From contig CAVWCX010000012.1 of NCBI GenBank assembly GCA_963753595.1, forward strand, positions 1-38,664: a stretch of 38,664 nucleotides of DNA, given 5' to 3'. A program made the translations under genes and the position numbers. This DNA comes from Candidatus Methanoperedenaceae archaeon. GTDB lineage: Archaea > Halobacteriota > Methanosarcinia > Methanosarcinales > Methanoperedenaceae. The notes below the pieces were generated by a model. It was not told the origin of the DNA and did not search any database. It worked only from the letters and a program-made list of their open reading frames with translations. This document shows positions 6,114-34,367 of this stretch, in pieces; within the stretch, counting starts at the first letter, position 1; every line of letters starts with the position of its first letter.

Positions 6114-6674
6114 ATGCAAAATTTTGAACAAGAATTAACCAATTTGCCGAAACATTTCATTATATTGGTCGTATCAAGTTCAGTTCATTATATGGAAAAC
6201 AACCTGGAAATACTTAAAATATTACTTAATGAAAAAAAAATGTCAGGTATATATATTAATGTCAGCAGGAGTTATGACAACATTTCAGAGATCATGACAT
6301 CAAAAAATATAGATATATCACGACTTTTTTTCATAGATTGCGTAAGTTTAAGTACCGGGATCAAACCTGTTAAAAAAGATTCGGTATTGTATGTGAACTC
6401 ACCATCCGACCTGACAGAAATTTCGATCGTTCTTGATCAACTTGTCCAGACAATCCCAATGCAAGAGAGGTTCCTTTTTTTAGATTCCCTTTCAGCGCTC
6501 CTGATCTATAACTCATCAAATATAACAAGCAAATTTGCACATTTCCTGACTGTCAAAATGAGGCAATGGAAAATCATAGGAATTTTGATAGCCCTTGAAA
6601 AAGAAACTGATGAGAAGTTAATTTCATTAATAAGCCAATTCGCTGACAAGATAATATTTGCAGATAAGGGGTGA
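6114..6674 (+). CDS. Degenerate RecA/KaiC-like (RAD55/DUF835-like) domain protein lacking Walker A
   Basis: GIYINVSRSY, LFFIDCVS and FLFLDSLSALLIYN (Walker B-like) motifs, ending QFADKII; no GxxxxGKT. Confidence 0.7.
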   Translation: MQNFEQELTNLPKHFIILVVSSSVHYMENNLEILKILLNEKKMSGIYINVSRSYDNISEIMTSKNIDISRLFFIDCVSLSTGIKPVKKDSVLYVNSPSDLTEISIVLDQLVQTIPMQERFLFLDSLSALLIYNSSNITSKFAHFLTVKMRQWKIIGILIALEKETDEKLISLISQFADKIIFADKG

Positions 6675-7909
6675 TGGTAATGGTAAATAAATCGCAGGAA
6701 AATATAGTACACGCTTTGATAGTTATACTGGGTATAGTTTTTTTTCTGATAATATACGTGATCGCCACAGAGAACAAAGAAGAAGTTAGAATTGAAGCTA
6801 AGAATGCTATTCTTTTAAAAGAGGTCTATGTGATATCAAATCAATTAGATAATTGGTTCATGCAGGGTCAGTCCGATACTTTTTTTTTAAGCCATGATGA
6901 AGATATCAGAATATACGCTGAAACATCCAATATCACTGCAATAGATGAATCAACAGATCTTTTTTTACAGTATGCAAAAGCCAAACAAAGATTTTATCAA
7001 TTACAATTTATAAACGAAACGGGACAGGAGCTGATACGGATATATTATGACCCGGAGGTTTCAGATTATGTAGCTATGCCAAATTACCAATTATCAAACG
7101 TAAGTAATTTTCCATATTTCAAAACAACAACAGGTTTTCCCGATAATGATTTATATGCATCTGAAATTCTTCATGTAAATACCTCCTCTCAGGGAATATC
7201 TAATGAAGTTATTATCATATATGCAACACCTGTGATCAATTCAACTGGCGTCATGAAAGGAATTGTAGTTGTTTGTCTGACGGTTGATAAGCTACTGGAT
7301 GATATACAAAAAAAATTGATCCGCAACATGGAAGAGCCAGAGTATTTCATAGTGGATCAAGATGGATATTATATTTATAATTACAAAAATAGTCACAAAG
7401 AATTTGCAAAGTACCATGGAATAGAAGAGAATCTCAGGAAAGATTATCCAAAAAGCTCCCCGGAAATGTTATCCGGGACAGATGGACAGATAATGGATAT
7501 TCAAATGGGTCTTGCTGATTTTCAAACATACCATTTTAATCCTGCCAATCTGTCGCAATACATTGTGATAATCGGTGTGAACAAATTCGCATTGATCTAT
7601 CAAATCCTTCTTGATGGCATTGTGATCAGTATTGGCGCATTTTCTTATATATTTCTTATTTATGCATACAGGAATTTCATAAAAGGTGATTTTAAAAAGC
7701 TGCTTAGCTTTATGATTTTAATATTGACGTTCATTGGTATTTACAAAACCCTTGAAATACTGGAATTATATTATCAATTCGAAGGATTATTTCTCATTGA
7801 GCAAACTGCATTGATCCTTAGCATACTGATGATCATAGGATTCGCCTGGCATCTCCTTGAATTCTCCAAAATGTACGGATTTGCTGACAAAAAAACATTC
7901 AAAAAATAG
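6671..7909 (+). CDS. Membrane sensor with extracellular dCache domain and C-terminal TM bundle, no cytoplasmic output domain
   Basis: N-terminal TM; Cache motifs QLQFINETGQELIR, YFKTT, IIYATPV, YFIVDQDGYYIY; about three C-terminal hydrophobic helices; GTGA overlap with the upstream gene. Confidence 0.75.
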   Translation: MMVMVNKSQENIVHALIVILGIVFFLIIYVIATENKEEVRIEAKNAILLKEVYVISNQLDNWFMQGQSDTFFLSHDEDIRIYAETSNITAIDESTDLFLQYAKAKQRFYQLQFINETGQELIRIYYDPEVSDYVAMPNYQLSNVSNFPYFKTTTGFPDNDLYASEILHVNTSSQGISNEVIIIYATPVINSTGVMKGIVVVCLTVDKLLDDIQKKLIRNMEEPEYFIVDQDGYYIYNYKNSHKEFAKYHGIEENLRKDYPKSSPEMLSGTDGQIMDIQMGLADFQTYHFNPANLSQYIVIIGVNKFALIYQILLDGIVISIGAFSYIFLIYAYRNFIKGDFKKLLSFMILILTFIGIYKTLEILELYYQFEGLFLIEQTALILSILMIIGFAWHLLEFSKMYGFADKKTFKK

Positions 7910-10724: not shown

Positions 10725-11045
10725 ATGCAGCCAATAACAGAAGAACTTATCAGGGAAATCAAAGACTGTATTGTCGGTACAGTCCATCCTGACAAGATTA
10801 TCATTTTTGGTTCATACGCTTATGGAACGCCCACGAAAGATAGCGATCTGGATTTACTCGTAATAATGCCATCGGATGAACCTATGCATAAGAGAGTGCT
10901 TCCAATAAGGAAGTTGCTTCGTGATTTTCATGTTCCTAAAGATATAATTGTTTATACTCCAGATGAAGTGGAGAAATGGAAAAATGTTACTAATGCATTT
11001 ATTACATCAATAATGAAAAAAGGAAAGGTCATATATGGATTATAA
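10725..11045 (+). CDS. Minimal nucleotidyltransferase (MNT), putative antitoxin
   Basis: IIIFGSYAYG...DSDLDLLVI (GS-x10-DxD) motif; 106 aa; ends GKVIY. Confidence 0.9.
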   Translation: MQPITEELIREIKDCIVGTVHPDKIIIFGSYAYGTPTKDSDLDLLVIMPSDEPMHKRVLPIRKLLRDFHVPKDIIVYTPDEVEKWKNVTNAFITSIMKKGKVIYGL

Positions 11046-11430
11046 AGATCTGGCAAAAAAATGGTTCAATAAAGGAAACAATGACCTTACAGCAGGAAAA
11101 TATCTTCTTTCCATGCCAAAGCCGCCTGCAGATATAATATGTTTTCATGGTCAACAAGCAGTTGAAAAATACATTAAGAGCTTCCTTGCATTGCATGGCA
11201 GAGAAATTCCAAGAATACATGATCTGGAAGAGGTAATCTCTCTATGTGAAGAAATTGATTCAGAATTTTTCGAATTATATGAAATATCCTCCGAATTATC
11301 AAGTTATGCGGTAGATGTCAGATATCCAACGGAAGGAGATTACGACGTATCGATTGAAGACGCACATAGAGCAATAGACATTGCCGAAAAAATCAAAAAA
11401 TTCATTTTAAACAAATTAAAATTGAGCTGA
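11035..11430 (+). CDS. HEPN domain protein, putative toxin partner of MNT
   Basis: CFHGQQAVEKYIK, PRIHDL and VRYP motifs; overlaps MNT by 11 nt. Confidence 0.9.
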   Translation: MDYKDLAKKWFNKGNNDLTAGKYLLSMPKPPADIICFHGQQAVEKYIKSFLALHGREIPRIHDLEEVISLCEEIDSEFFELYEISSELSSYAVDVRYPTEGDYDVSIEDAHRAIDIAEKIKKFILNKLKLS

Positions 11431-11435
11431 TACCC

Positions 11436-14400
11436 ATGCCAGAACCAGAATCCAAAGAACCAGAACAGCAAAGCCTTGTACCACAAAAGATCACCCTGGT
11501 AAACATCGAGGATGAAATGAAGCGCTCATATATCGATTATGCGATGAGCGTCATTGTTGGCCGCGCTCTTCCTGATGTCAGGGACGGCCTGAAGCCGGTA
11601 CACAGGCGCATCCTGTATGCGATGAACGAGCAGGGGATGACCCACGATAAGCCCTACAAGAAATCAGCAAGGATCGTGGGAGACGTTCTTGGTAAGTACC
11701 ACCCGCACGGCGATATCGCTGTTTACGATTCTCTCGTAAGGATGGTACAGGAGTTTTCTTTACGATATCCTTTGATAGATGGACAGGGAAACTTTGGCTG
11801 TTTTACAGGTGATACTAAGATCAAACTGTTAGATGGTACTGAAAAATCGTTTGAGGAACTTGCGAGTTTGAGCCCAGATGATATTTTTTATGTATATTCA
11901 GTTGACGATAAAGGGCATATCGTGATTGGGGAGGGCAAAAATGCCCGGATAACCCGCCATCAGGCAGAACTCTTAGAATTGACGATCGATAATGGTGAAA
12001 AGATACGCTGCACGCCAGACCACAGATTCATGCTGCGCGATGGCACATATAAAGAGGCGCAGGATCTCACTATCGATGATAGTCTTATGCCAGGATACTT
12101 TGATACTGCTCCGGTTAAAGAAGGGCTTAATGATTACCTGAGAGTGTTGCAGCCCAAATCCGGTGAATATGATTTTGTACACCATCTTGCTGATGATTTC
12201 AACTTCCTAAAAGGAATAGCAAAAGGAACCGGAGGACCATTCGTCCGGCATCACAAGAATTTTGATCGGATGGATAACCGTCCGACCAACATCGAACGCA
12301 TGGAATTTCTGGAACATCTGCATTTACATGCGGAATGTATCACAGAATTATGGGAAGATGATGAATTCCGCGAGAGACAAAAACAGGGTGTGAAGCGCTA
12401 TTACAATGAGCATCCGGAAGTACTTGAAGAACGCAGATCAAGATTCAAGAACCAGAATAAGGATGAAGAATTCCGCAAGGAAAATGCACTTCGCAGTTCA
12501 GTCGGGATGAAGAAATATTTCATTGAGAACCCCCACGCAGGCGCTGAAATTTCAAAGAGGATGAAAGCGTTATGGGAAGATGAGGATTATCGCGCTAGAA
12601 TGAAAATTGCGCTTGCCAATGTTGAGAAACGTGAGCTATCACCAGAAGAAAAAACAAGAGTAACGCAAATCATTTCTGAAAAAAGCAAGAAAATGTGGGA
12701 AAATGATGAAAAGCGCTCTGAAATTATTGAAGCTATTTCTCTCGCTTTGTCATCTGAAGAAGTTCGGGCAAAACTGAGCGAAAATTCCAGGCGCAATTGG
12801 CAGAATCCGGAATATCGAGCAAAGTATCCCAAAGATCACTTTTCTAAAATGGCTCAAAAATGCTGGGAAAAACCGGAAACACGAGCAATGCATCGAGAAA
12901 AAATCGCAGAACAGCGGCAAGACCAAGCTTTCCGTGATGCTCAAAGGAACGGTGTCATCCAAAGTAATGAGCTTCGAATGCAACAAAATCCCACAATGAT
13001 GTCAGACCTTGCAGCGCATGCGGCCTCCAAACTTGTTGAAAAATGGACTGAACCTGAATACAAGAACACGGTAATGCGCCAGAAGATCGCAGGATATGTC
13101 GCACAATTATTGAAAAAATATGAGGTGGTCACTCCAGAGGTTTATGATGCGAACAGGAATATGAATTGGATCCCTCGTATTGAAACAGCTCTAAAATATT
13201 TTAATGATTTCGATCATCTTTTGCATACAGCTAAAAACTACAACCATCGCATAATATCCAAACGGTTCTTAGATGAACGTGTTGATACATACGATATTTC
13301 CGTTGATAGATACCACAATTTCTTACTCGCATGTAACGTATTTGTTCACAATTCTATTGACGGGGACAGTGCCGCTGCAATGCGATACACTGAAGTACGG
13401 CTCGGAAAGATCGCAGATGAGATACTCGGTGACATCGATAAAGAAACCGTGGATTTCGTTCCAAACTATGATGATTCTTTAAAAGAGCCTTCTGTTCTTC
13501 CATGCAAGCTCCCGAATCTTCTAATCAATGGTTCCACAGGTATCGCCGTGGGCATGGCTACCAACATGCCTCCTCATAATCTTGGCGAAGTGATCGATGG
13601 AATAACAATGGTCATCGATAATCCTGCTGTGGAATGGAATGAACTCATGACCGCAGTCAAAGGACCTGATTTCCCAACGGCGGGTTTTATCTATGGCCGG
13701 CAGGGGATCCGGGATGCGTACTCCACAGGCCGCGGCTCGATAAAGATGCGCGCCCGCGCAATAATCGAGGAAGTAAAGAACAAGGAAACGATCATTATTA
13801 ATGAGCTTCCCTACCAGGTGAACAAAGCAAAAATGATCGAAGATATTGCAGGTCTTGTCCGGGATAAGAAGATCGCGGGGATAACCGATCTTCGCGATGA
13901 ATCCGATAAAGATGGCATCCGCGTCGTCATTGAGATATCACGACAGGCCCAGGCCAACATTATTTTGAACCAGCTTTACTCGCACACACAGCTTGAAACC
14001 ACTTTTGGCGTAATCAACCTGGCTCTTGTAGATGGGCGCCCGATGGTCCTGCCATTAAAAGAATTAATCACCAATTTTATTTCCCACAGGAAGCAGGTCA
14101 TAATACGAAGAAGCCAGTTCGAGCTCAAGAAAGCACAGGCGCGCGCCCATATACTCGAAGGATTGATAATCGCGCTTGACCATATCGATGAAGTCATCAA
14201 GCTCATAAGAGCCTCACAGACACCTGATGAAGCCCGCGATGGTCTTATGGCACAGTTCGGCTTGAGCCTTGAGCAGGCAAAGGCTATTCTTGACATGAGG
14301 CTCCAGAGGCTCACGGGTCTTGAGCGCGAGAAGATCGATGCCGAGTACGGGGAGCTCCAGAAGACAATAGCCTGGCTAATAGAACTCCTGGAAAGCGAAA

Positions 14401-15554
14401 TAAAAATACTTGCGCTTATAAAAGAAGAACTAGCAGATATCAAAGCCCGCTTTTCAAATAAGAGACGCACCGAAATAATTGACAGCACAGGCGACCGCGT
14501 GACTGAGGATTTGATCCCGAAAGAAGATGATGTTATCACAATAACCAATAGCGGTTACATCAAACGCATTGCAGTGGATTCATATAAACAACAACGCCGC
14601 GGAGGAAAGGGTGTAATAGGCATGGAGACCAAGGAAGAGGATTTCGTAAGCGACCTCTTTATAGGCAATACCCATGATTATCTCCTTTTCTTTACTGACA
14701 AAGGCAAAGTTTACTGGCTGAAAGTATATGGGATCCCTGAAGCCGGAAGGCAGGCACGGGGCACTGCCATCGTCAACCTGCTGCAACTTGAGCAGGATGA
14801 AAAGATCAACGCATATATTCCGATCAGCAAATTTGATGAGAAACACTACCTTTTGATGGTCACAAAGAAAGGTACAGCCAAGAAGACCGAGCTCACTGAT
14901 TTTGCAAATGTCAGGAAAACAGGTATTATCGCCATCTCTCTTGATGAAGGGGATAAACTTGTATCCGTAAAGCTCACGGATGGTACAAAGGAAATGGTGA
15001 TCGGCACAAAGCACGGGAAAGCCATCAGGTTCGATGAGAATGATGTGAGGGACATGGGACGAAGCGCTTACGGAGTAAGAGGTGTAAGGCTTGTAGGCGA
15101 AGATGAAGTCGTCAGCATGGCAGTCGTGGAGGAAGGCGCAACCCTTCTTACTGTGACCGAGAACGGTTTCGGGAAGCGCACAGTATTTGATGAATACCGA
15201 ACAAGCAACCGCGGCGGACAGGGTGTTATTACCATCGATGTCAATATCAGGAATGGAAATGTCGTGGATATAAGGACTGTCCGCGAGGATGAAGAGATCA
15301 TGATCACGACCTCGAACGGCATCATTATCCGTGTGCCTGCAAGCGGAATACGCGTGCAGGGCAGGAATACGCAGGGTGTGAAGATAATGAATGTCGGGGA
15401 TAAGGACAGGGTCGTGGGCGTGGCTACGCTTGCGAAGGAGGAGGAGGCTGCAAAGGAGGAAGGGGCCGCGGAGGAGGCGGCGCCGGTGCAGGTGACGCTG
15501 GAAGAAGCGGAAGCGCCTCCCAAGGATGAAAAAAAAGATAATAAAACAAATTAA
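11436..15554 (+). CDS. gyrA: DNA gyrase subunit A precursor with intein (854 aa after splicing)
   Basis: [22 protein letters not shown], catalytic AAMRYTE, GyrA-box QRRGGKG, beta-pinwheel repeats, acidic tail. Confidence 0.98.
11799..13352 (+). mobile_element. 518-aa intein with HNH homing endonuclease in GyrA
   Basis: Block A CFTGDTKI (Cys122), block [30 protein letters not shown], block F/G TYDISV..HNFLL..VFVHN, +1 Ser. Removal restores DGQGNFG-SIDGD. Confidence 0.96.
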
Positions 15555-15952
15555 ATGTAAAGGATAAGAAGGAATATCCTAACCAACAAGAATAGATGAT
15601 AATATACATTAAAAGTATTAGGGAATATAATATTATTTATTTTCTTATAGCGAAACTAGTTTAAGAGTTGAGTAAGATTAGATTGATTTTGTAGGTTGGG
15701 TTATGAAAATAGAAATATATAGAATTATAATTAATATAGAAGAGTAGAAATTATAGGAGTATAAAATAAAAGAGAATATATAAGTTATTTAAGTGCTTTA
15801 CTTGATGGCTTATCTCCTATATTTTGCGCCCTACCTCCGAATACGATGAATACAAGGGCGAGCAAAGAGCCGGCTATTGATCTAGGTTCAAAGTACGCTG
15901 GGATTCTAATTCGATAGTATCACGATCGGAATAGAAATTTGTCGGATCATGA

Positions 15953-16130
15953 CTATTTATGCAAAAGTTCATTAAATTCTTCCACGGTCAGCCCGGCTAT
16001 GTTTATAATCTAATCGCCTAGGGTTCTCAAAGTCCCGCGTGACAATCTCATTATGTAGTTTATAAAGTATGATAGATAACTTAAAGTCATTAATCAATAC
16101 ATATGCATCCTCTTAGATAGTCTTGGAAGG
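15953..16130 (-). pseudogene. HicA-family toxin remnant (C-terminus)
   Basis: Minus strand reads ...RGTLRT...IINIAGLTVEEFNELLHK* (stop 15953-15955), matching the HicA GTLRxIxxxAGLxxEEF end; 5' boundary uncertain. Confidence 0.55.
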
Positions 16131-16826
16131 TAGAATGAGACGGAGATTGTTTTTTCATATATTCATCTGGATTAATAAAAATATTATTTACTGCAACTAC
16201 TCCTTTTTGAGCAATATAATAACTAACCTTTTCCGATAACTTCTCTATCCAGAGAAAATATATAACCGAAACCTGGAGCAACAAGAAATAGTTTGATAGA
16301 TAAAAAAATATCCAATGTAGATAAAAGAAGATAAAGATATAAATAATAGATAAAAAAAAAGATTTTTTTTTAATTTTTAGTAAATAAATAGATTAGTTTA
16401 AGAAACTCACTAAGAAACTGTAAAATCGTTTGGAATTGTTAGAGCCTGTTTTTCAGGGATGTCTCAAATGGATATGCAAACTGCCTGTTTGACCACGAAT
16501 ATAATAAAAAACCTCATTTTAATCAGCGTTTTTATTACCTAAATAATTGACCTAACCAACAAGAAAAATAATTAATAGAAATAGATATATAATATACCTT
16601 GATGGCTTATAGAACGATTCCTATTATTTATATAATAAAGAAAAGATAATAAACTATATAAAATACTTTTTTCTACTGAAAAAGAAATATATAGAGCTTG
16701 TTATAATACAGCTATCTTCCTCTTCGCCACCATATGACGCAATAACGCTAACATGTGCAAAATTAAGGCGCGCCAAAGAGCCTGTGATCCTGGAATTTCC
16801 AAGCATTGAAATAGATGAATACTACC

Positions 16827-17171
16827 TTATCTTTTGACAAAGTGCTTTCTAATTAATGAAGCAAAGAAAGCTTGAGTGTAGTTTTTCCTGATCCCAACTC
16901 CATCAATGCCCAGAACCGTAGCACTTTGATTCGATTGAAAAAAAAGCGATGAAAGTGCCTTAGATACTAGGTAGAAATCAAATTTAGGAGTATCTGTAGG
17001 ACTATATTCTACATAAGTTAAATTCATCGTTCTTCCTCCGTCTAACATGTACACAGATCCCACGCGATAATTTTCATCAAGATAGGAAAATATTTCTGGA
17101 TATGCGTTAGCCAATTGTATATTCACTTCTTTCCTCCTGAGACAACTGGTAATTTGCTCATATAGAAGCAC
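16827..17171 (-). CDS. Hypothetical protein fragment
   Basis: 114-aa ORF with ordinary composition inside the degraded tract; no family recognised, probably 5'-truncated. Confidence 0.4.
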   Translation of the reverse strand: MLLYEQITSCLRRKEVNIQLANAYPEIFSYLDENYRVGSVYMLDGGRTMNLTYVEYSPTDTPKFDFYLVSKALSSLFFQSNQSATVLGIDGVGIRKNYTQAFFASLIRKHFVKR

Positions 17172-17688
17172 AGAAACTATTGTTTCTTTTATTCAACATG
17201 TGGGGATTAGAGCTAAGAATATATACTTCTCTTAGAGTTAGGGAACTAAACTAAGGAATGTTTCAATCAGATTAATTGATTGCCAAATCTCCCAAACTAC
17301 TGATACTTAGGACTAATAACATTATGTAAATTGGTAATATATCAGATGGATGATAAAATATTGTCGGATAATGATATTATATGCAAAAATACTGCAATAC
17401 TAGCAAATAAACAATTATATAAAAGAAATTTAGATCTATTCTCATACGCAGCTTCGTAACGAAGGATGGATGCCTCGTAAGATCAGAATACAGTGCATGG
17501 AGTTTTACATCTACTTCTTCTCTTGTTGGCGCAATAATCTCTGCATCTCTCTTGCATTTTTACCTCCCTGATAAGTTCCTACAGACGTTTGTAGAGTTGA
17601 TTTAGTTCGAATGAAAGTCTACCTACGAAAGAATCAAGTTGCTTCTCCATATCTACATTTCGTGTCAAAATACGCTCACGTAAATCAT

Positions 17689-18024
17689 TTACTTCTTGCT
17701 CAATCGCTTCACGTTGTGCTTTAAGTTCATTAATTTTTTCCACGGTTCAACACTCTGAGCAACTACGGTTTGCTTAAAAAGTTTTTCGCTTTGATCTAAA
17801 AGCTCCTGTAAATATGCATTGGTTGCATCTATATTCTTTTTTCCTCTCAGAGCAGTTTGTACATCGGTATCAATAATGGATATTGCATCACGTTTGTTAA
17901 GATCGAACCATAATATAGTGATTTGCATAACTGATTTTAGAATAGAAAGCAGTTCATCATCAACATTACTATCCGAAATGAAACAACCTATCACATTAGG
18001 GAACAATTTAGAAACTTGTTTCAT
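17689..18024 (-). CDS. Hypothetical protein, probably continuing past a frameshift toward ~17590
   Basis: 111-aa ATG-started ORF; another frame continues DLRERILTRNVDMEKQLDSFVGRLSFELNQLYKRL. Confidence 0.45.
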   Translation of the reverse strand: MKQVSKLFPNVIGCFISDSNVDDELLSILKSVMQITILWFDLNKRDAISIIDTDVQTALRGKKNIDATNAYLQELLDQSEKLFKQTVVAQSVEPWKKLMNLKHNVKRLSKK

Positions 18025-18289
18025 TTATTCTCGAAAAAACCTGCATGATAGAGCTTATAAATTGAATGAATGCCATCTTCCGCCAACATTTTAAATTATT
18101 AGAAGTAATAAAATAAAATAAATCGAATATTAGCAATGCAACCCTCTATGGCGTTTAACCTTATGTTTTCAAACTGGCGTCCTTAATGCAGCATTATGGT
18201 TTGGAATCGTTGACCTATTTCTTCGGAAAGTTCACGAATCCTCTCATTATTTAATGGTAGACTAATCCTTTTGAATCGCGAAAGAGCAC

Positions 18290-18420
18290 TCGACATATAA
18301 TAAGATTCTCCTTATATTTTAATTCCATTTTCTGTTTTGCCCTGAGATATACAACCGGGTAAAGCTGGCACTGTAGCCACATACCAGCCGTCTTCGTCCT
18401 TTATCCAATAGTTAATGAGA
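18290..18420 (-). pseudogene. HicB-family antitoxin remnant
   Basis: 18398->18330 reads DEDGWYVATVPALPGCISQGKTE, the HicB N-terminal signature; flanks are disrupted. Confidence 0.75.
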
Positions 18421-18639
18421 AAAAAGATATAGATAATAGCTCTGTGTATATAAAGATGAATAATGTATTGTAATAAGGATTAGTATTTGATTATAAGATA
18501 AATATTATATTAAGAGATTGAGATATGTGATATTTAGTTTGTTATTGTGAACTGTGTAATGAAGGGTGAAATGCTCAAGTTCATCTATCATAATAACAAA
18601 GGGAAAGCATAAATAACTGTAAATTGCGCATATAGAAAC

Positions 18640-18863
18640 AAGAAGATCGCCAGCATCGATTTCTTGGTTAGATATTTTAAAATTCGAACTCTATGGGGTT
18701 CCTCTGATTTGAATGCCTCATCTTTCAACCATCGAATTGATATATCAGAAGTCTCACACTATATGAGTCCAGTTAAAGCATTGCATACTTCTTCACTTGC
18801 TTCATGACAAATATCCTTAATAATACTTTAAAATTCATCAAAATGCCTCAATTGATGTCTATC
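18640..18863 (-). pseudogene. Helical protein remnant with in-frame stops
   Basis: One frame reads DRHQLRHFDEF*SIIKDICHEASEEVCNALTGLI*CETSDISIRWLKDEAFKSEEPHRVRILKYL. Confidence 0.3.
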
Positions 18864-20913
18864 AATAATATGTATTGAAGATTTGATTAAGTTTCTCTAA
18901 GAAGCTTTTCTAAGTTTTGCTTGAGATACTTAATGCTGGCATAAGTATAATGATTATATTTAGTATGAATAGCTACTTTAATTCGTGAATAATTTTTGTC
19001 TGGAACCACTTAACTGGATCTGCTTAGATACAGGATATACGAGAATAGATACATCTGGGAATGTCGAAGAAAATATTTATAGAAACTGAGCAGCTGTATC
19101 TAATAGAAGATGAGTTTTAACAGTAACATAATAGATCTTTACTGACACAATTAATGACTCAAATTTCAGAGTAGAGTTGATATTCTTATTGTTATACTGT
19201 TAATAAAATGTATAAGAGAGAGAGAGAAATAATAATAGATAAAGTAGGAATAGTAAATTTATAGATATTTATAGATTATTATTTTAATAGGATTACCGGA
19301 TAATCTGGAAACGAATATATATTAATATGATGAAAATTTATTTTAGTATTATTTTATAGTAATATAATATAAAATGAATTATATTATAATTTATATAATT
19401 ATAGGATATAGTAGAGATATAAAAATTTACATAGAGTTATTGAATTAGATAAATAAAGAATATATGTAATAATAAAAAGAGAATAAGAAATGTTATTGTT
19501 ATTCGATTATATATGATAAAAATAGATATAACTGAATATAGAATATCATATGCATCAAAAGGAAATAAACCAAAGCCGCTAGTAATAGCAAAACTGTTTT
19601 GCGTAATATTTCGATAAGACTTAAAAAAATGCAAATGCAAAATACGCTATAAGTGAGAGTGTCTATAAAGTAATAACTAGATGTATTGAACGAGAGAAAA
19701 AAGTAAAAATAAAATAGGATAGATTGTAAAGAGAAATAGAAAAATAATACGATAAATAAACTTATATAAAAATAAAATACTTTAGCTAAAATATATAAAA
19801 AAAATTGTAGATAAGTAGAAAACAGAAATAATTTGAATTAGTTTTATATTTAATCTATATATATATTTAATCAATTTATGACATTTGATAGATACTACTA
19901 TTAAAAATATTTTCTGCCATAGATAAAGAAAGATATACTATATTTTTTATTTAAAAAGTATAAAGTGAAGAATAATAAAAGATGATAGAGAAGTATAAAA
20001 TGTTATATAAGAAAAAAAAATGAGAAATATGAAAAAGAAGTATAAAGAAAATGATGTATTAATAAAATATATTTAAAGAGAAAAAAAGTATAAAAAATAA
20101 AAAAATAATGAATGAAATGGAACAGAATGTGAGAAATACATGGAAATAGATAAGGATAAAAATGAATATAAAGAGGTGATTAAGAAGATCTTATGTAATG
20201 AAAATTATCTCAACTAATACTATAATGACTTGACTTGAAAAGATATACTAGAAAACCGAAAAATTTAAAAAAATAAATAAAAAAAAAATATAAAAAAAAA
20301 AAATATAAATAAATAAAAAAAAAAAAGAGATAAAGTATTTATGGTATCAATTTAATTTTAATAGATATATATAACACCGATACATTAGGTAAATAAGATA
20401 TTTGATTCATTAATTCAATATATAGCTTATCTGAGATATTAATATAAGCTTTTATAGTTATGTGATCAATTTCAATGATTCATAAATATTATAAATAGAT
20501 TTATTTAATTGAAATAATAATTTTAATAAAGATATAAATAAAATGAGTGATAATAATTATATTACATATATAAAAATAAAAAAGAAAGATAAATAGAAAG
20601 ATATGGAATATATTATAAATCAAGGAGAAAAAAACAAAAATGAAATTAGATAAAAAGAAAGAAGGTAAGAAAATTTATATAGAATAAAATAGAATAGGTA
20701 TAATTAATAAGAATTGGAATAAAATAATTTTTCAGGCTAAGATTATAAAATAGATGAAAGTGTAGATAAGATATAAACAAGTATCAAAACCGTCTATAAT
20801 TTCTTATATATATTAAATATCTAAAAAGTACTATTTATTCATGAATTCAAATTAAAGCTCTCAATTAATTGAGTATATCTATATTGATAATGTATTAGAA
20901 GAGACTAAGAAAA

Positions 20914-27910: not shown

Positions 27911-28852
27911 TTATCCTCTTTTGGCTGCAAACATTTTTACCGCCTCATCAACAAGTTTGCCGCCGCCTTTTTTATTTAACTCATTACCGATTCGCTCGGC
28001 TTCCTTTTCATACTCAGCGGGGTTTATAAATTCATCTATTTTTACGCACCGCTTCCCATCCACTGAGAGAACTTCAGTACGGACGTGTATTTCATTTCCC
28101 TCTGTTTGTGCAAAAGCGCCGATTGGAACAAGGCAGCCGCCGCCAAGAATCCCGATTATTATTCGTTCAATACGTGTTTCAAGCCGCGTCTGTTCGTCAT
28201 TTAAAACAAGGACTGCATTTTGCGCTTCCGAACCTTTCCTGGTAACTATGACCACTGTTCCCTGATTAGCGGATGGGACAAAATCGTCAGGATCAAGGCG
28301 TTCACCTGGCAGATCCCATTTCAGTCTCTCAAGTCCGGCTTGCGCAAGGAAAATACCGTCATATTGCCCTTCCTTAAGTTTACGAAGGCGTGTATCGATA
28401 TTACCGCGTAACTCCTTTATGTTGAAATCTGATCTGTATCTGGATAGCTGGGAGCGTCTTCTCAGGCTTGTAGTTCCAATGATCGAACCTTCAGGGAGGT
28501 CTTTTAATTTCGTATCGTTGCGCGTAAGCATGAAATCATAAGGTGAATCGCGTTTCATTACAGCGGCTATTGTAAGTTCCGGCGGCCTTTCCGTGGGAAC
28601 ATCCTTCATGCTATGCACAGCGATATCTATCTCACCCGCCAGCATCGAGTCGTCGATCTCACGCACAAAGACACCAAAACCCTGTACTTCATGCAGCGGC
28701 CTGTCAATGATCGCATCACCTGATGTTTTGATTATTATAATTTCCGTATCTACACCGTTTTTCAAAAGGAGATCTTTCACAAGGTTTGCCTGGGCAAGAG
28801 CCAGCTTGCTGCCCCTTGTTCCTATACGCAATGGTTTTTTGGGATTTTTCAT
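27911..28852 (-). CDS. hemC: Hydroxymethylbilane synthase (porphobilinogen deaminase)
   Basis: [46 protein letters not shown]. Confidence 0.97.
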
Positions 28853-30116
28853 TTCAGGTTCCTTTGGTAAGCTTTTAAGGTTTTATCCATGTCATCTTTC
28901 GAATGGGCAAGGGACAGGAAATTCGTCTCAAACTGCGAAGGCGGTAAAAATATCCCATCATCCAGCATTTTCTTGAAAAATACATTGAATTTAGCTGTAT
29001 CACATTTCAGGGCTTCCTGGTAATTAGAAGGCATATCCCCGAAGAATACCTTGAACATGCTCCCCACACCGCTCACGTTGTAATCAAGTCCAAGATCGGT
29101 TATGATATCAGATAGTCCTGACCGTAATGAATCCCCGGCATCATTTACTTTGTCATGGACTTTCTCTTTTTTGAGTGTTCTTATCATTGCAAGTCCTGCT
29201 GTCATCGAAACCGGGCTGCCATTGAATGTCCCTGCCTGGTAAACAGGTCCGGCGGGTGAAATTTTCTCCATTATTTCACGCTTTCCACCGATCACCCCGA
29301 TATGGAAACCGCCGCCAAGTATCTTTCCCAGGGTTGTCATATCAGGAGTTATACCGTAATATTCCTGCGCACCACCCATGGCAAGCCTGAATCCTGTAAT
29401 TACTTCATCGAAGATCAATACGACATCATTTTCTTTTGTTACTGCGCGGACCTCTTTCAGATACCCTTTTTTTGGTAATATCGGCCCGATATTTCCAAGT
29501 ACGGGTTCTATGATCACTGCCGCCACATCGTCTTTATAAGCAGCAATTGCTTCTGTCATGGCCTCGATATCGTTATATGGCACCTGGAGTGTATTCTTCG
29601 TGAAATCTTTCGGTACGCCTGCAGAGTCGGGTGTACCAAGTGTAGTTGCGCCAGAACCCTGCTTTTACCAGCACCGCTTCATGAGCGCCATGGAAGCCTC
29701 CTTCGATCTTGATGAATCTTGTTCTTTCCTGTGAAACCTCTTGCCGCACGCAGCGCTCCCATTGTCGCTTCTGTTCCTGTGGAGACAAATCGCACCATGT
29801 CAATGCTCTTGTATAATTTTATAATTTCATTTGCAAGAGACACTTCAAGTTCGCTCGGGGTTCCGTAAAGCCAGCCGTCATCAAGCTGTTTGATAATAGC
29901 TTCCTTTATCGCAGGATGGTTATGGCCTAAAAGCAATGGCCCATAACCCATTACGTAATCGATATATTCATTACCATCAATATCGGTTAACTTTGAACCG
30001 TTCGCTCTTTTTGTATAAAATGGATATGGTTTTATTGCTCTGACAGGGCTGCTTACGCCCCCGGGAAGTATTTTCCTGGCTTCATCGAATAATTTTCTTG
30101 ATTTCTCTGTTCCCAT
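28849..30116 (-). CDS. hemL: Glutamate-1-semialdehyde 2,1-aminomutase, interrupted by two +1 insertions (~29714, ~29658)
   Basis: [50 protein letters not shown] spread over three frames. Confidence 0.95.
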
Positions 30117-30177: not shown

Positions 30178-30250
30178 CGTCCGGGCCGGGATTTGAACCC
30201 GGGTCGGAGACTCGACAGGCCTCCATGATAGGCCGCTACACTATCCGGAC
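30178..30250 (-). tRNA. tRNA-Asp(GTC), no intron, CCA not encoded
   Basis: GTCCGGATAGTGTAGCGGCCTATCATGGAGGCCTGTCGAGTCTCCGACCCGGGTTCAAATCCCGGCCCGGACG; anticodon loop CT-GTC-GA, T-loop GTTCAAATC, discriminator G; one A:C mismatch at acceptor pair 7. Confidence 0.95.
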
Positions 30251-30327: not shown

Positions 30328-31386
30328 TCATTGTGTCTTTATCTCATACCCATCAAACATCTTTCTCATAATTGTATCCTGGCATGTACCAAATCCTGGA
30401 GTTGCGATCTTTTGACCAGACAGGCCATCGATCGAAGTAATATTAGAATCCGCCCTGACGACAAGGGAAGTCCCTCCTGAATTCACACCACTTACGATAT
30501 GTATCCGCCCGTTTTCATTTATTTTATATCTTAAAAGCACGGAGGTCCCGGCTATTGCTGCATCGATTTCCTGGTGATTCAAGGCATCTGTTACTGCCCT
30601 GCCGCTTCTGTAACCTATTAACTGGAGATTCTTTCCGGTAACAAGCCCGACTTTCTCAAAATAACCCAGTTTCTGGGCTACATATATCGCAAAATAATGT
30701 GAATTTCCCTCTATGTATCCAAACCTGATGCTCTTATTAACGCGCGGAGGGACCCAATTCGGGTCATCGTCCAGGTTTTTTCTTACCTCATCGTAATATT
30801 TATTAATATATAATTTAGAGAGAAAATCATCAACATCCGTATATCCTAAGGAACTAATATTGTTCGTTAAAATACCGGTTTTACTCATAATGTCAATGGC
30901 TCTTTTTGTTTCGTTAAGGTCGGGATATTCTATATAAATAGTATTATTGATGACCGCTGAAGTCATATTTTCATTAATACCTGAGAATTCCTGTCCATAT
31001 TCCAGGACTATTTCCCGGTTTACCGGATTATTAATGAACCTTGTTCCTTTAACTTCTGCCCATACCAGGGCTTTTATCATATCTTCATCCTTCAGGTCTT
31101 CTGATATAGCAAGAACACAGGATGGATGGTTCTCCCAGATGTCCTTAGAATTTACAAGATACTTGCCATAACCCTCGGAAACTGCTTTTGAAGGGTTTGG
31201 TTCCCAGGAAATAAAACCCGCTATGGAATTATTCACAAGCGCCTTTGACATCTCATCTGCTGTCATCGATACGACATAAATTGATTTTTGATCGCTGGAT
31301 CTGGCAGTTTTATCAGATGTTTCATAAAACATGAATCCTGAGGCCACTACTAATACGATCGCACCCAATATAATATAATTCTTCAT
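30328..31386 (-). CDS. SsuA/NrtA/NMT1-like solute-binding protein, circularly permuted, N-terminal membrane anchor
   Basis: M..AL...IAGFISWEP...DIWENHPSCVL precedes IRFGY...VAQKLGYF...LVVRADSNITSIDGLSGQKIATPGFGTCQD, the reverse of the usual order. Confidence 0.85.
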   Translation of the reverse strand: MKNYIILGAIVLVVASGFMFYETSDKTARSSDQKSIYVVSMTADEMSKALVNNSIAGFISWEPNPSKAVSEGYGKYLVNSKDIWENHPSCVLAISEDLKDEDMIKALVWAEVKGTRFINNPVNREIVLEYGQEFSGINENMTSAVINNTIYIEYPDLNETKRAIDIMSKTGILTNNISSLGYTDVDDFLSKLYINKYYDEVRKNLDDDPNWVPPRVNKSIRFGYIEGNSHYFAIYVAQKLGYFEKVGLVTGKNLQLIGYRSGRAVTDALNHQEIDAAIAGTSVLLRYKINENGRIHIVSGVNSGGTSLVVRADSNITSIDGLSGQKIATPGFGTCQDTIMRKMFDGYEIKTQ

Positions 31387-31393
31387 ATTATGA

Positions 31394-33199
31394 TCAACCC
31401 TTTTTTAATTTGAAACTGAAAGTACTGCTCTTCCCGGGTTCACTTTCTACATGAATTACGCTTCCATGTGCCCTGATAATTCCGCTTGATATAGAAAGGC
31501 CGAGTCCGCATCCGCCAGTTTTTCTTCTTGAAGAACTGTCAACCTGATAAAACTTATCAAATATCTTTTCAAGTTTTTCTTTATCAATCCCGATACCTGT
31601 GTCTTTCATACTGACCTCTATCCCGTCCGCATCTTCTTTTGCGCTAAGGATAATAGTTCCGCCCGCAGGTGTAAATTTTACTGCGTTCTCAAAGAGATTA
31701 TTCAGCACAATAATAAGCTTTTCCATATCAGCCATAACAGGGGAAAGATCATCGGGAACATCCATTATTATAGATATATTTTTTGTAAGGGCAACCTGTT
31801 TTATGTTCTCATATGATGCATCCGCTATTTCTCTTATCCCGATAATATCCAGTTTGAGTTCTGTCTTTCCTGCTTCGATCTTCGAAAGGTCAAGAATATC
31901 ATTTATGAGCCTGGTCTGGCGGTCAATATTTCTCAGGATTATCTGAAGTATCTCTTTCCGGTCAGCAGGGGTGATATTTGCATCAGATTCCAGATACTCA
32001 GCCGATATCTTCATAGATGAGAGAGGTGTTTTCAATTCATGGGAAACAAGAGAAAGAAAATCAGATTTCAATTCATCTAATTTTTTCAATTCTTCATTTG
32101 CGGCGATCAGTTCTTTATTCTTTATTTCAAGGTCTTTATTTGCTATATCAATTTTCATTTCAAGCTTTTTCCTTATATCAAGGAGTTCACAAGCAGTTGA
32201 ATTGAATATCTCGGTCAGCCGACCGATCTCATTCCTTGATGAGACAGTTATAGGCTTGAAATTCCCGCGAAGCAGTCCAAGAGCCCCCCCTTCAAGAGAT
32301 TTGACGGGTCTTGTGATGTTACCCGAAACAACTAAAGCAAGAAAGACCACCCCCATTACTGCCAATATTGAAATACCCACCATCACACGTCCCAGTATCA
32401 GTACGCCAGCATAGGCCTCATCGATATTCTTTTCTGCTATGAGTCCCCATCTGTAAAGCGGCAGCCAGTAATAAGAGCCAAGCACATTTTCCCCGTTATA
32501 ATTGACATATTCGTTGATACCATTTTTTTCATATGTGACTTCCCTTACTGCGAAATTATTATCAATGTTATTGAGCAGGATAAGTGACTGGTTCTTATGG
32601 AATATTATCTCCCCCTTCTGGTTGACAATAAATACCTCACCTGATTTTCCAATGTCGATCTTTTCTATTATCCTGTACAGGTTATCAAGGCTTATTCGCG
32701 CTGCCAAAACTCCCACTATTTGCCCATTCTTCCATATTGGATTACTTATTATTATTTCAGGGATATCTGTGGTATTGGATTTATAAACATCCGATACATA
32801 TATTTTTCCTTTTAAAGCCTCGATAAAATAAATTTCTCTTCTTTCATTTCCTGTTCGGTTAATATTAGAGAAGATTATATTTCCATCAATGTCAAGTTTA
32901 TAGAATTCCCTGTATACGCCCTTGTGTTCGCGTTCAAAGGTGTCCAGGAACTCTTTGAAGTGTTCTTTTTCCGTTGTCAGGGTTACCCTGGATTGGGATA
33001 TTACACGAATATCATCTTTCCTTGCATCCATCCAGTTATCGATCACATTTCCGGTATTTTCGGTCGCCCCAAGCAGGTTGGACATCACCGAATCACGGAT
33101 AGCTAACTTACTATACTCATAAGATATGTAAACAACCGCGGATAAAGGTACTACTGATATGATCAAAAAAAAGATAATCAGTTCTGACCGTAATCTCAC
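31394..33199 (-). CDS. Membrane sensor histidine kinase (TM-dCache-TM-HAMP-HisKA-HATPase)
   Basis: H box VSHELKTPL, N box NLFENAVKFT, DTGIGI, GCGLGLSI; HAMP NEIGRL. Confidence 0.95.
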   Translation of the reverse strand: MRLRSELIIFFLIISVVPLSAVVYISYEYSKLAIRDSVMSNLLGATENTGNVIDNWMDARKDDIRVISQSRVTLTTEKEHFKEFLDTFEREHKGVYREFYKLDIDGNIIFSNINRTGNERREIYFIEALKGKIYVSDVYKSNTTDIPEIIISNPIWKNGQIVGVLAARISLDNLYRIIEKIDIGKSGEVFIVNQKGEIIFHKNQSLILLNNIDNNFAVREVTYEKNGINEYVNYNGENVLGSYYWLPLYRWGLIAEKNIDEAYAGVLILGRVMVGISILAVMGVVFLALVVSGNITRPVKSLEGGALGLLRGNFKPITVSSRNEIGRLTEIFNSTACELLDIRKKLEMKIDIANKDLEIKNKELIAANEELKKLDELKSDFLSLVSHELKTPLSSMKISAEYLESDANITPADRKEILQIILRNIDRQTRLINDILDLSKIEAGKTELKLDIIGIREIADASYENIKQVALTKNISIIMDVPDDLSPVMADMEKLIIVLNNLFENAVKFTPAGGTIILSAKEDADGIEVSMKDTGIGIDKEKLEKIFDKFYQVDSSSRRKTGGCGLGLSISSGIIRAHGSVIHVESEPGKSSTFSFKLKKG

Positions 33200-33220
33200 A
33201 CGTCCCTCTCAATATCATTT

Positions 33221-33733
33221 TTAATTTTTTGCCCTTCGAAGAACACTTTTTATGCGGGCTCTCAATTCATTAAGGTTGAAAGGTTTTGTCACATAATCAT
33301 CGGCGCCAATATCCAGGCCTTTAACTTTATCCCTGACTGCATCTTTCGCAGTAAGAATAATAACCGGAATATTTTTTGTCATGGGATCTTTTTTTAATTT
33401 TTCGCACACTTCATAGCCATCCATTTCAGGCATCATAAGGTCAAGGAGTATAATGTCAGGAATCTCGGTTTTAGCTTTAATAAGTGCCTCTTTTCCATTG
33501 CTTGCTCCAACGACAATGTAATCTTCGGCTTCAAGAGATCTCTTTAAAGGCAGAAGTGTATCGATCTCATCATCAACTAACAGGATCTTTGATCTTGTAT
33601 CTGAAAACCTTTCTATCCTTAGTGTCACTTCATCTTCAGGAATTCCAAGTACTATGGAAATCTCGGAATTGGATATTTTCTCATTTTTCTTTAATAATTC
33701 AATTATTTTATTATCTATAACATCTCCATTCAT
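33221..33733 (-). CDS. Response regulator with N-terminal AsnC/Lrp-like HTH and receiver domain
   Basis: IDNKIIELLKKNEKISNSEISIVLG...RIERF, then LLVDDE, LLDLMMPEMDG, LTAK, DDYVTKPF. Confidence 0.9.
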   Translation of the reverse strand: MNGDVIDNKIIELLKKNEKISNSEISIVLGIPEDEVTLRIERFSDTRSKILLVDDEIDTLLPLKRSLEAEDYIVVGASNGKEALIKAKTEIPDIILLDLMMPEMDGYEVCEKLKKDPMTKNIPVIILTAKDAVRDKVKGLDIGADDYVTKPFNLNELRARIKSVLRRAKN

Positions 33734-34035
33734 AGTTTTCCACCACCGTTCATAAGATGTTTCAGATCATCATTGATCTTTAGCAGGTATTTAGTCAGTT
33801 CGTTATCCATATTCAGCCTGAACACACGGATCTGTTTTCCCAGCGGTTTTTCGGTAATTACATTAATATCAAGGAGCGGCTCTATTACCCGTGATACAGT
33901 GGAATGGGAAAGGCCTGTAACTGCAGCGATCCCTGACAGGTATGTATCATTGTCCTTATTATCAAGCAAATGCTCAAGGACTACCAGCTGTGCTGTTTTG
34001 CCAAAGATTTTTTCAAGAAAATTGGGATTTTGCAT
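33730..34035 (-). CDS. Winged-helix DNA-binding protein; start placed at ATG 34035
   Basis: LSGIAAVTGLSHSTVSRVIEPL HTH and wing GKQIRVFRLN; ATGA overlap with the response regulator. Confidence 0.85.
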   Translation of the reverse strand: MQNPNFLEKIFGKTAQLVVLEHLLDNKDNDTYLSGIAAVTGLSHSTVSRVIEPLLDINVITEKPLGKQIRVFRLNMDNELTKYLLKINDDLKHLMNGGGKL

Positions 34036-34209
34036 AAATAAGATTAAGATTACCTTATTGTTATATAATAATATCCTTTTATTAGCACCCCTATATTTCA
34101 AAGTTTAAACCATAGTTTATATTTAAATTTATCACCATATTTATTACTACTTGAATTTGAATATGTGTGACTTAACCGTAAATGTTATATACAATATAAT
34201 ATATGTATA

Positions 34210-34367
34210 GACTTGTCGATGAATAGTCCAGAATGAAAATGGGTGGCTATCGGCGGGTTGGGAAGTGGGGGTATTAATAACCATATCGGGGTTTGAGATT
34301 GATGCCTCCAACTCAACCCCCCTTCCTTATTAATATTATCAGTTCTATCCTGACTATAGTCAAGTTC
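34210..34367 (+). ncRNA. Candidate structured RNA or structured 5' leader of uvrC
   Basis: GC-rich intergenic stretch with hand-found nested complementary segments, starting ~25 nt after TTATATA (34185-34191). Family not recognised. Confidence 0.3.

Follow-up and report, generated by a model that had tools for sequence, protein, structure and literature searches.

DNA-binding regulators are rare in archaeal two-component systems, and the path from the receiver to transcription is described as an open question (PMC5847659). Archaeal regulators combining a helix-turn-helix (HTH) with a receiver domain (HTH-REC) and neighbouring HTH genes have been noted without a demonstrated interaction (PMC5847659; PMC11784639). 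The closest described system is LtrK/LtrR of Methanococcoides burtonii (Mbur_0694/0695), in which H367 and D98 are essential, the cytoplasmic part of the kinase responds to temperature, and the targets of LtrR are stated to be undetermined (PMC4823666). A second group comprises bacterial kinases stimulated by a solute-binding protein, i.e., HptA/HptS, LuxP/LuxQ, TorT/TorS, and AioX/AioS; the archaeal cases among the examined table entries of a review of such systems are the chemoreceptors BasB/BasT and CosB/CosT, not kinases, and the term NMT1 does not occur in its text (PMC8050422). Here, a four-gene cluster of a Candidatus Methanoperedenaceae archaeon is compared with these systems. It encodes a small winged-helix protein (wHTH), an HTH-REC regulator, a Cache-type membrane sensor kinase and a circularly permuted solute-binding protein of the NitT/TauT family, and lies in a stretch of 38,664 nucleotides (GenBank assembly GCA_963753595.1, contig CAVWCX010000012.1, positions 1 to 38,664 of the forward strand), referred to as the window (Table 1). 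The reading developed below, to which about an even chance is given, is that of an LtrK/LtrR-family module whose dCache-HAMP kinase would be gated by a binding protein co-opted from an importer and whose output would reach cell-envelope genes via a 20-bp operator bound by wHTH. A literature search, from which supplements and subscription papers were excluded, found no description of the locus, the wHTH protein or the operator box; such neighbourhoods may be tabulated in the supplements to PMC4823666 and PMC5847659.

An earlier note on this DNA had described four co-oriented genes with an overlap of 4 nt (33730-33733) and gaps of 21 and 7 nt, and a cluster devoid of permeases and ATPases of the ATP-binding cassette (ABC) type. 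All of this was reproduced, the flanks being a tRNA-Asp and haem-synthesis genes downstream and the divergent uvrC upstream. The cluster is kept beyond chance among relatives, and the host is a Ca. Methanoperedens, as are its named close relatives, in agreement with the methanotrophic host that the note had considered. The label of a new operon did not survive, as wHTH, HTH-REC and the kinase core constitute the LtrK/LtrR module of the Methanosarcinales. By homology, the three genes other than that of the binding protein are this module together with its unnoticed wHTH neighbour and an exchanged sensor domain. The reference proteins were taken from locus L210 (genome G130) as LtrK and LtrR because the kinase with H367 and an N-box at 474 and the regulator with D54/D55/D98 match the published residues. 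The window kinase core and the LtrK core are reciprocal best hits (47%) and share the H-box VSHELKTPL. Likewise, the best match of LtrR in this genome is the window HTH-REC (55% over 170 aa; the reverse search covered five other genomes, not G130), and D54, D55, and D98 are invariant in 55 HTH-REC sequences. The wHTH neighbour at L210 is 56% identical to the window wHTH and 63% identical to its paralogue on contig C30. In contrast, the sensors, both labelled dCache_1 by Pfam, feature no significant BLAST similarity, and the window kinase has an added HAMP domain. Moreover, the window wHTH gene is co-oriented instead of divergent, and the kinase is followed by the solute-binding protein and not by a DUF3887-type lipoprotein. 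The latter gene follows the LtrK-type kinases in L209-L213 (L210:4199-4675; Pfam was run on L210 only) and encodes a candidate accessory protein in its own right. At LtrK-type loci, the module stands beside PF13796, PLDc_N, and MacB/FtsX genes. A decayed second operon copy was found in the same genome (G000:C30:92575-94371) with intact box, wHTH and REC, an internally deleted kinase and a truncated binding protein.

Homologues of wHTH (49-65% identical) occur in 81 of the 201 genomes of the class, and 74 sequences feature a near-invariant helix (T40-G41-L42-x-H44-S45-x-V47-x-R49-V50) and wing (G66-K67-Q68-I69-R70). The REC protein has an acidic HTH, with a mean net charge of -2.3, that is conserved more weakly than the receiver (0.64 vs 0.77). 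A palindromic box was found in 37 of 41 upstream regions of Methanoperedens wHTH genes, is present at all 14 Methanoperedens wHTH genes without an adjacent REC, and is absent at L064, which has REC and no wHTH, as well as at L050 and L051. Since the box tracks wHTH, whose helix is near-invariant, and the HTH of REC is acidic and variable, wHTH is the likely binder of the box as judged from sequence. A matrix scan of the genome revealed five strong intergenic sites of 24-28 bits; the next site scored 17.6, and shuffled sequences yielded 0-1 sites of at least 18 bits. Three of the five lie outside the training set and precede a gene for a secreted protein that is accompanied by MacB/FtsX and ATPase genes (C30:73084), an S-layer protein assigned by Pfam (C23:76276), and an insertion-sequence-like gene (C24:75343). 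A loose IUPAC pattern was detected in 33 of 35 genomes with a binding protein of the window type and in 6 of 18 without, these genomes being kin and thus non-independent; the pattern is noisy (113 sites vs 30 for the reversed control), and single matches were not trusted.

The position of the box at promoters is equally informative. Among 105 unique sites, 46 adjoin a TATA box (1.0 in shuffles) and 22 lie 23-30 nt past the TATA start (4.0 in shuffles), with the spacing of -27 found in the window recurring at 18 sites. Compared with 16 references, the 46 TATA-abutting sites lead to 19 secreted Ig-like proteins, four MacB-type ATPases, one DUF4386 protein, and one beta-propeller, 25 envelope or export genes in total, and to 21 genes without a match; of 20 start-site cases, 12 face uvrC, three face envelope genes, and five have no match. 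Genes for Yip1 proteins are also among the predicted targets, and at LtrK/LtrR loci the box precedes the MacB operon. Because it sits at promoters of secreted Ig-like, MacB/FtsX, S-layer and Yip1 genes, the output of the module is likely a cell-envelope regulon, a prediction that does not support the link to electron acceptors considered in the earlier note. According to established archaeal promoter logic, a box over the transcription factor B recognition element (BRE) or the start site suits a repressor (PMC5937170). TFB-RF1 of Pyrococcus furiosus likewise uses a palindrome at a fixed TATA distance and controls its own operon and an ABC exporter; however, it activates from a site upstream of a weak BRE (PMC5937170), whereas the present box directly adjoins the TATA box or follows it, suggesting repression. 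Motif and exporter type differ too, the comparison being one of site position. The combination of Yip1 and a MacB-like exporter among the predicted targets resembles YknWXYZ of Bacillus, which protects against a peptide toxin (PMC4887032); this bacterial system includes a membrane-fusion protein and serves as a functional analogy for the regulon only. Regulation of uvrC by the box is uncertain because a conserved G-rich leader separates the two. This G-rich element (34232-34275), which directly follows the box in uvrC-linked loci and also occurs without uvrC (L057, L096), is a possible small RNA or leader; an Rfam search of the intergenic DNA gave no match.

The same data allow for two separable circuits at one locus, with wHTH and the box forming a one-component regulon and the kinase and HTH-REC acting elsewhere via the HTH of REC. 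The 14 stand-alone wHTH genes beside boxes, Methanosarcina-like genomes with several wHTH copies away from any kinase, and R39 of the REC HTH, kept in 83% of 55 sequences, agree with such a separation. Nevertheless, it is judged clearly improbable: the adjacency of wHTH and REC is retained in three families and two orientations, with translational overlap in the window, and the acidic charge and weak conservation of the REC HTH are at odds with a DNA-binding role of its own.

With respect to the binding protein, the permuted architecture claimed in the earlier note is real. Residues 33-127 correspond to profile positions 151-247 in the C-terminal half of NMT1_2 and residues 230-349 to positions 3-117 in the N-terminal half of NMT1, and alignments to the solved proteins CmpA, CmpC, NrtC, and TauA display the halves in swapped order. 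The AlphaFold2 model is a confident two-lobed fold (pLDDT, predicted local distance difference test, 91.3) in which the permutation cut falls in a loop of one lobe and the new ends bear the membrane anchor. Fold and sequence family are shared with CmpA, NrtA, TauA, SsuA, the S. aureus protein 3UN6, and the clade B proteins associated with carbon monoxide dehydrogenase (CODH; SaoX). The window protein differs in being permuted, permease-less and remodelled in its pocket, and stays below the NCBIfam cut-offs (73.7 vs 163.5 for SsuA_fam; 31.6 vs 300 for SaoX). Its neighbourhood was surveyed in 165 deduplicated loci from 180 fetched best hits, a non-random sample classed by sequence only, which consists of 148 full permuted proteins and 17 rows broken, cut or not scored as permuted. 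The window protein belongs to a clade of 48 loci. A dCache-HAMP kinase is encoded at most 600 nt away in 43 of them, and no permease gene is found up to 2.5 kb away (0/48). Outside the clade, a permease is present in 89 of 100 permuted proteins (21/24 and 68/76) and such a kinase within 600 nt in 0/100. Thus, the orphan binding protein is tied to the kinase, as suggested before, and is linked to a kinase and not to a transporter in the manner of the bacterial systems. The permutation itself was discarded as a source of signalling novelty, as the ABC-linked relatives have it too; for the wider family, the association with ABC permeases that the earlier note had named as contrary to its proposal was indeed found.

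In an unrooted tree of 42 rows chosen from 145, a branch supported at 100/100 sets the clade apart with a long stem (0.80), and a 108-row tree gave it a Shimodaira-Hasegawa-like approximate likelihood ratio test (SH-aLRT) value of 100. The permuted form is also encountered in Archaeoglobi, Thermoplasmata, Methanomicrobia, Bathyarchaeia and various bacteria, and the family is common in thermophilic archaea and Firmicutes. Because the clade was seen in two families of one order only, and ABC-linked copies in many phyla, we infer recruitment from an importer. The clade protein is found in 35 of 53 genomes of the family, often as two paralogues, A beside uvrC (the window type) and B beside a MacB/FtsX exporter. 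Kinase and binding protein are still paired where wHTH and REC are lost (L050, L051), and among 251 genomes the window-type dCache-HAMP (at least 58% identity) was seen solely in those with the clade protein. A lipobox is missing in all 47 clade proteins tested and present in 22 of 24 of the group typified by a second permuted copy of the same genome. This copy on contig C23 is collinear with and 26% identical to the window protein and heads a NitT ABC operon; the ATPase of the latter (G000:C23:77836-78596) is frameshifted in this assembly and intact in relatives.

The ABC ancestry of the family and three NitT-like permeases in the genome could mean that the binding protein serves a permease encoded elsewhere, adjacency to the kinase merely providing co-regulation. 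In addition, three of five tested genomes with the clade protein do contain permeases (G009, G026, G028). Still, the most similar permease (C23) comes with a binding protein already, no NitT permease was detected in G002 (99% complete) or G044 (95%), both of which carry the clade protein, and the predicted docking face features the clade-specific changes S40, R260, T266, and F332. Service to a distant permease is therefore regarded as exceedingly improbable.

Several further observations concern the permuted family. Tandem repeats and alternative cut points (P0302, P0335, L190, L207, P0256, P0309, P0363) represent possible permutation intermediates and fit an origin of the permutation by duplication. 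No fusion of a binding protein to a kinase core was found among the best 150 representatives; the long hits inspected comprise tandem repeats, one copy extended by long repeats at the C-terminus, and one fusion to a permease; an in-frame join of Cache and binding protein at L094 was rejected as a fusion and appears to be a deletion. At L071, L075, and L078, a C23-type permuted protein without permease has Cache-GAF and multi-GAF signalling genes as neighbours, and may have been recruited to signalling independently a second time. ABC-linked copies very often accompany a divergent upstream HTH regulator (L072:3336-3854, with related genes at 62 loci by single-linkage clustering) and, in Archaeoglobi and Thermincola, MtrH-, MtaA-, and AcsV-like genes.

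The structure prediction of the binding protein with the Cache domain, recommended in the earlier note, passed its controls. For two copies of the sensor (residues 28-268) with the binding protein (31-352), the complex scored 0.69 against 0.35 for the best of three controls. Of 157 solved complexes, 116 attain the score mark, as do 2 of 215 mismatched pairs; these counts are rough for this complex. The model runs share at least 81% of contacts, with a partner pLDDT of at least 88. On the kinase, the predicted interface comprises residues 219-225 and 245-250 of the membrane-proximal Cache module; on the binding protein, residues 38-40, 257-268, 331-333, and 351-352 engage both lobes and include the clade-marked S40, R260, T266, and F332. 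The bacterial systems have a Cache-type receptor domain as well, and HptA likewise contacts a membrane-proximal Cache module (PMC8050422); the present module differs from them in its archaeal host, its permuted NMT1-family protein and its proposed split output. Over 71 rows, conservation is higher at the kinase interface than in the remaining sensor (0.90 vs 0.78, p=0.007) and higher in the proximal than in the distal module (0.86 vs 0.71). The distal module retains conserved residues of its own (Y96, E98, R168). A search for solved dCache structures near the sensor gave none that is close; the best matches (E 7e-7) are chemoreceptors.

The ligand pocket was compared with the transporter-linked relatives. 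The residues W61, E62, H87, C89, C90, H230, and Q336 show no variation in 87 ABC-linked sequences. The lysine of the HPxK motif in the nitrate-binding CmpC/NrtC domain is the counterpart of C90, and S89-C90 and H230 align with glutamates of CmpA, placing a Cys at the HPEE glutamate and a His at the first glutamate. These glutamates are presumably the acidic Ca2+ ligands, and the mapping of aligned positions to NrtA numbers, including Q336 to H196, is likewise assumed. NrtA balances nitrate through K269 and H196, and CmpA requires Ca2+ (PMC8786288). Neither the basic cleft residues of the NrtA type nor the acidic ligands of the CmpA type are found in the window protein, with C90 at the HPxK lysine and H230 and S89-C90 at the acidic positions. 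By comparison, a site of two Cys and one His for a metal was modelled for CODH-associated proteins, to which the invariant Cys-Cys and His of the ABC-linked relatives are alike, and zinc-bound 3UN6 is similar (PMC13592312; PMC6344411). Within the clade, C89 is altered in 46 of 48 proteins and kept in two, D228 is changed in 38 and E304 in all 48, R260 is gained, and a new C335 appears in 30; C90 and H230 are retained in 45 each, N302 in 47, and W61, E62, H87, G262, G280, and Q336 in 48/48. From these alignments, the clade pocket appears to be a remodelled derivative of a putative Cys/Cys/His metal-assisted site, so that its ligand would either differ from that of the transporter or be dispensable. 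The frequent proximity of ABC-linked operons to MtaA-, MtrH-, and AcsV-like genes hints that the ancestral protein may have bound a thiol or methylated compound.

In a reading that follows the earlier note, the binding protein presents nitrate, bicarbonate or a like anion related to electron acceptors, and the output tunes respiratory genes. The NitT/TauT family membership and the best sequence matches among solved structures (CmpA, NrtA, CmpC/NrtC) agree with such a ligand, as do the top matches of a wide fold search, AioX and ArrX, which serve kinases as oxyanion co-receptors (Z 9.8 and 9.4; rmsd 4.0 and 4.3; 176 and 181 aligned residues). These are tied with many other generic binding-protein folds (Z up to 9.8), and a Foldseek search gave weak matches, the best being OpuAC (E 7e-6, TM 0.38); neither search names a ligand. 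Against this proposal stand the Cys and His residues at the HPxK and CmpA positions (residue numbers being assumed), the absence of a respiratory gene behind all five strong boxes (0/5), and the abundance of the family in thermophilic archaea and Firmicutes. Nitrate and bicarbonate were rejected as ligands owing to the mismatched pocket residues, a sulfonate-like or other anionic ligand being still conceivable. Since the pocket resembles a Cys/His metal site and is remodelled in the clade, nitrate sensing by the module is unlikely, and the proposal including respiratory output is considered very improbable.

Taken together, a chain from a ligand-gated co-receptor via the kinase, phosphorylation of D98 and derepression at wHTH sites to envelope and export genes is proposed, for which belief and doubt are evenly balanced. 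The anchored binding protein is predicted to dock with both lobes on the membrane-proximal Cache module, where ligand-driven lobe closure would shift the kinase/phosphatase balance via the second transmembrane helix and HAMP. By homology to LtrK/LtrR, H387 would pass the phosphate to D98. Repression by the wHTH protein would come from occupying the BRE or the start site, and phosphorylated HTH-REC, its own HTH being acidic, may relieve it by touching the wHTH protein. The targets are predicted to include secreted Ig-like proteins together with MacB/FtsX exporters, an S-layer protein, Yip1 and DUF4386, with uvrC as a possible addition. A wider version, in which the kinase is run by a dedicated importer-derived co-receptor, HTH-REC is an anti-repressor of wHTH, and the box is the LtrK/LtrR-family operator of an envelope-stress regulon in Methanosarcinales, would offer an archaeal model from receiver to basal transcription; it is put forward tentatively, with doubt prevailing.

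Several results weigh against the proposed chain. The docking is a model prediction that close cousins can pass too; the interface shows no significant excess of clade-specific residues (p 0.14-0.21), and mirror-tree correlations of distances do not discriminate between dCache (0.85) and kinase core (0.84) as partners of the binding protein. In 5 of 48 loci, the clade copy lacks an adjacent intact kinase. RNA contigs of ~90%-identical relatives span each of the three gene junctions (three runs, one RNA study), which fits a single transcript without demonstrating one; positions 34109-34275 were uncovered in the three runs, which carries no evidential weight. Adjacency is the sole link between REC and wHTH; a weak search found neither fusions of the two nor longer wHTH forms, and an Atlas search returned generic archaeal HTH clusters only. 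The units of stand-alone wHTH and box could operate without a kinase. Besides, the box was found upstream of 0/21 wHTH genes outside Methanoperedens, G227 gave no match before the MacB operon of its LtrK/LtrR locus, and nearly half of the TATA-abutting sites (21/46) lead to genes unlike the references. Finally, the pocket is eroded (C89, D228, E304), and C90 and H230 are also lost in 3 of 48 intact loci; ligand binding may therefore be dispensable.

This last point leads to a further reading, in which the binding protein docks as a ligand-independent accessory, i.e., a brake or scaffold, and the kinase senses by its distal Cache pocket, membrane state or temperature, with the envelope regulon kept. 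Besides the loss of family-invariant pocket residues, it accounts for invariant R260 and F332, which map to the predicted interface and need not belong to the pocket, for the unrelated DUF3887 lipoprotein at the same gene position after LtrK-type kinases (L209-L213), for the conserved Y96, E98, and R168 of the distal module, and for the temperature response of the cytoplasmic part of LtrK (PMC4823666). On the other hand, six pocket positions are kept in every clade protein and N302, C90, and H230 in nearly all, and the modelled interface spans both lobes, fitting the sensing of closure. The accessory role is thus deemed unlikely, if to be taken seriously, and the ligand-gated co-receptor is retained as the preferred reading.

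The remaining window contains further features apart from the module. The gene hemL (aminotransferase class III; 28849-30116) is broken into two open reading frames (ORFs), probably by a frameshift or assembly error, and gyrA (11436-15554) contains an intein. It is followed by ~5 kb of very A-rich low-complexity DNA (15554-20900) with no long ORF and no Rfam match, which may be poorly assembled or decayed. A nucleotidyltransferase and HEPN gene pair (10725-11430) is likely a toxin-antitoxin module, and at 6114-7909 a KaiC-like/DUF7504 gene overlaps a gene with a histidine-kinase-type sensor domain and without a kinase domain.

Table 1. Features of the four-gene cluster and its flanks (coordinates of the window).
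Feature	Position	Strand	Basis and remarks
wHTH gene, small winged-helix transcription factor (101 aa)	33730..34035	-	Pfam MarR_2 (weak); ATG at 34035
HTH-REC, LtrR-type response regulator (170 aa)	33221..33733	-	HTH_AsnC-type 4-42 and Response_reg 50-162; D54, D55, D98, T128, K150
Membrane sensor kinase (601 aa)	31394..33199	-	Pfam and LtrK comparison; transmembrane helix (TM), dCache_1 33-255, TM, HAMP, HisKA (H387), HATPase_c
Circularly permuted NitT/TauT-family solute-binding protein (352 aa)	30328..31386	-	NMT1_2/NMT1 matches; N-terminal hydrophobic anchor, no lipobox
20-bp palindromic operator candidate	34212..34231	.	Consensus CTTGWCKATWWATMGWCAAG; 24.2 bits here
TATA-like box toward the G-rich leader and uvrC	34185..34192	+	Sequence; 27 nt ahead of the palindrome, which would overlie its start site
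Predicted BRE/TATA promoter of the four-gene operon	34061..34080	-	Sequence and conservation in uvrC-linked orthologues; ~26 nt ahead of the wHTH start
tRNA-Asp(GTC) downstream of the operon	30178..30250	-	tRNA call; not a conserved member

The locus supplies a concrete operator, a candidate binder and a list of targets, which are testable in vitro and in culturable Methanosarcinaceae carrying the box. According to the modelled complex and the gene neighbourhoods, it likely exemplifies, in an archaeon, control of a sensor kinase by a binding protein whose origin is traceable to a family of ABC importers. For Methanoperedens, these results suggest that the cell surface, rather than nitrate respiration, is what the module regulates.

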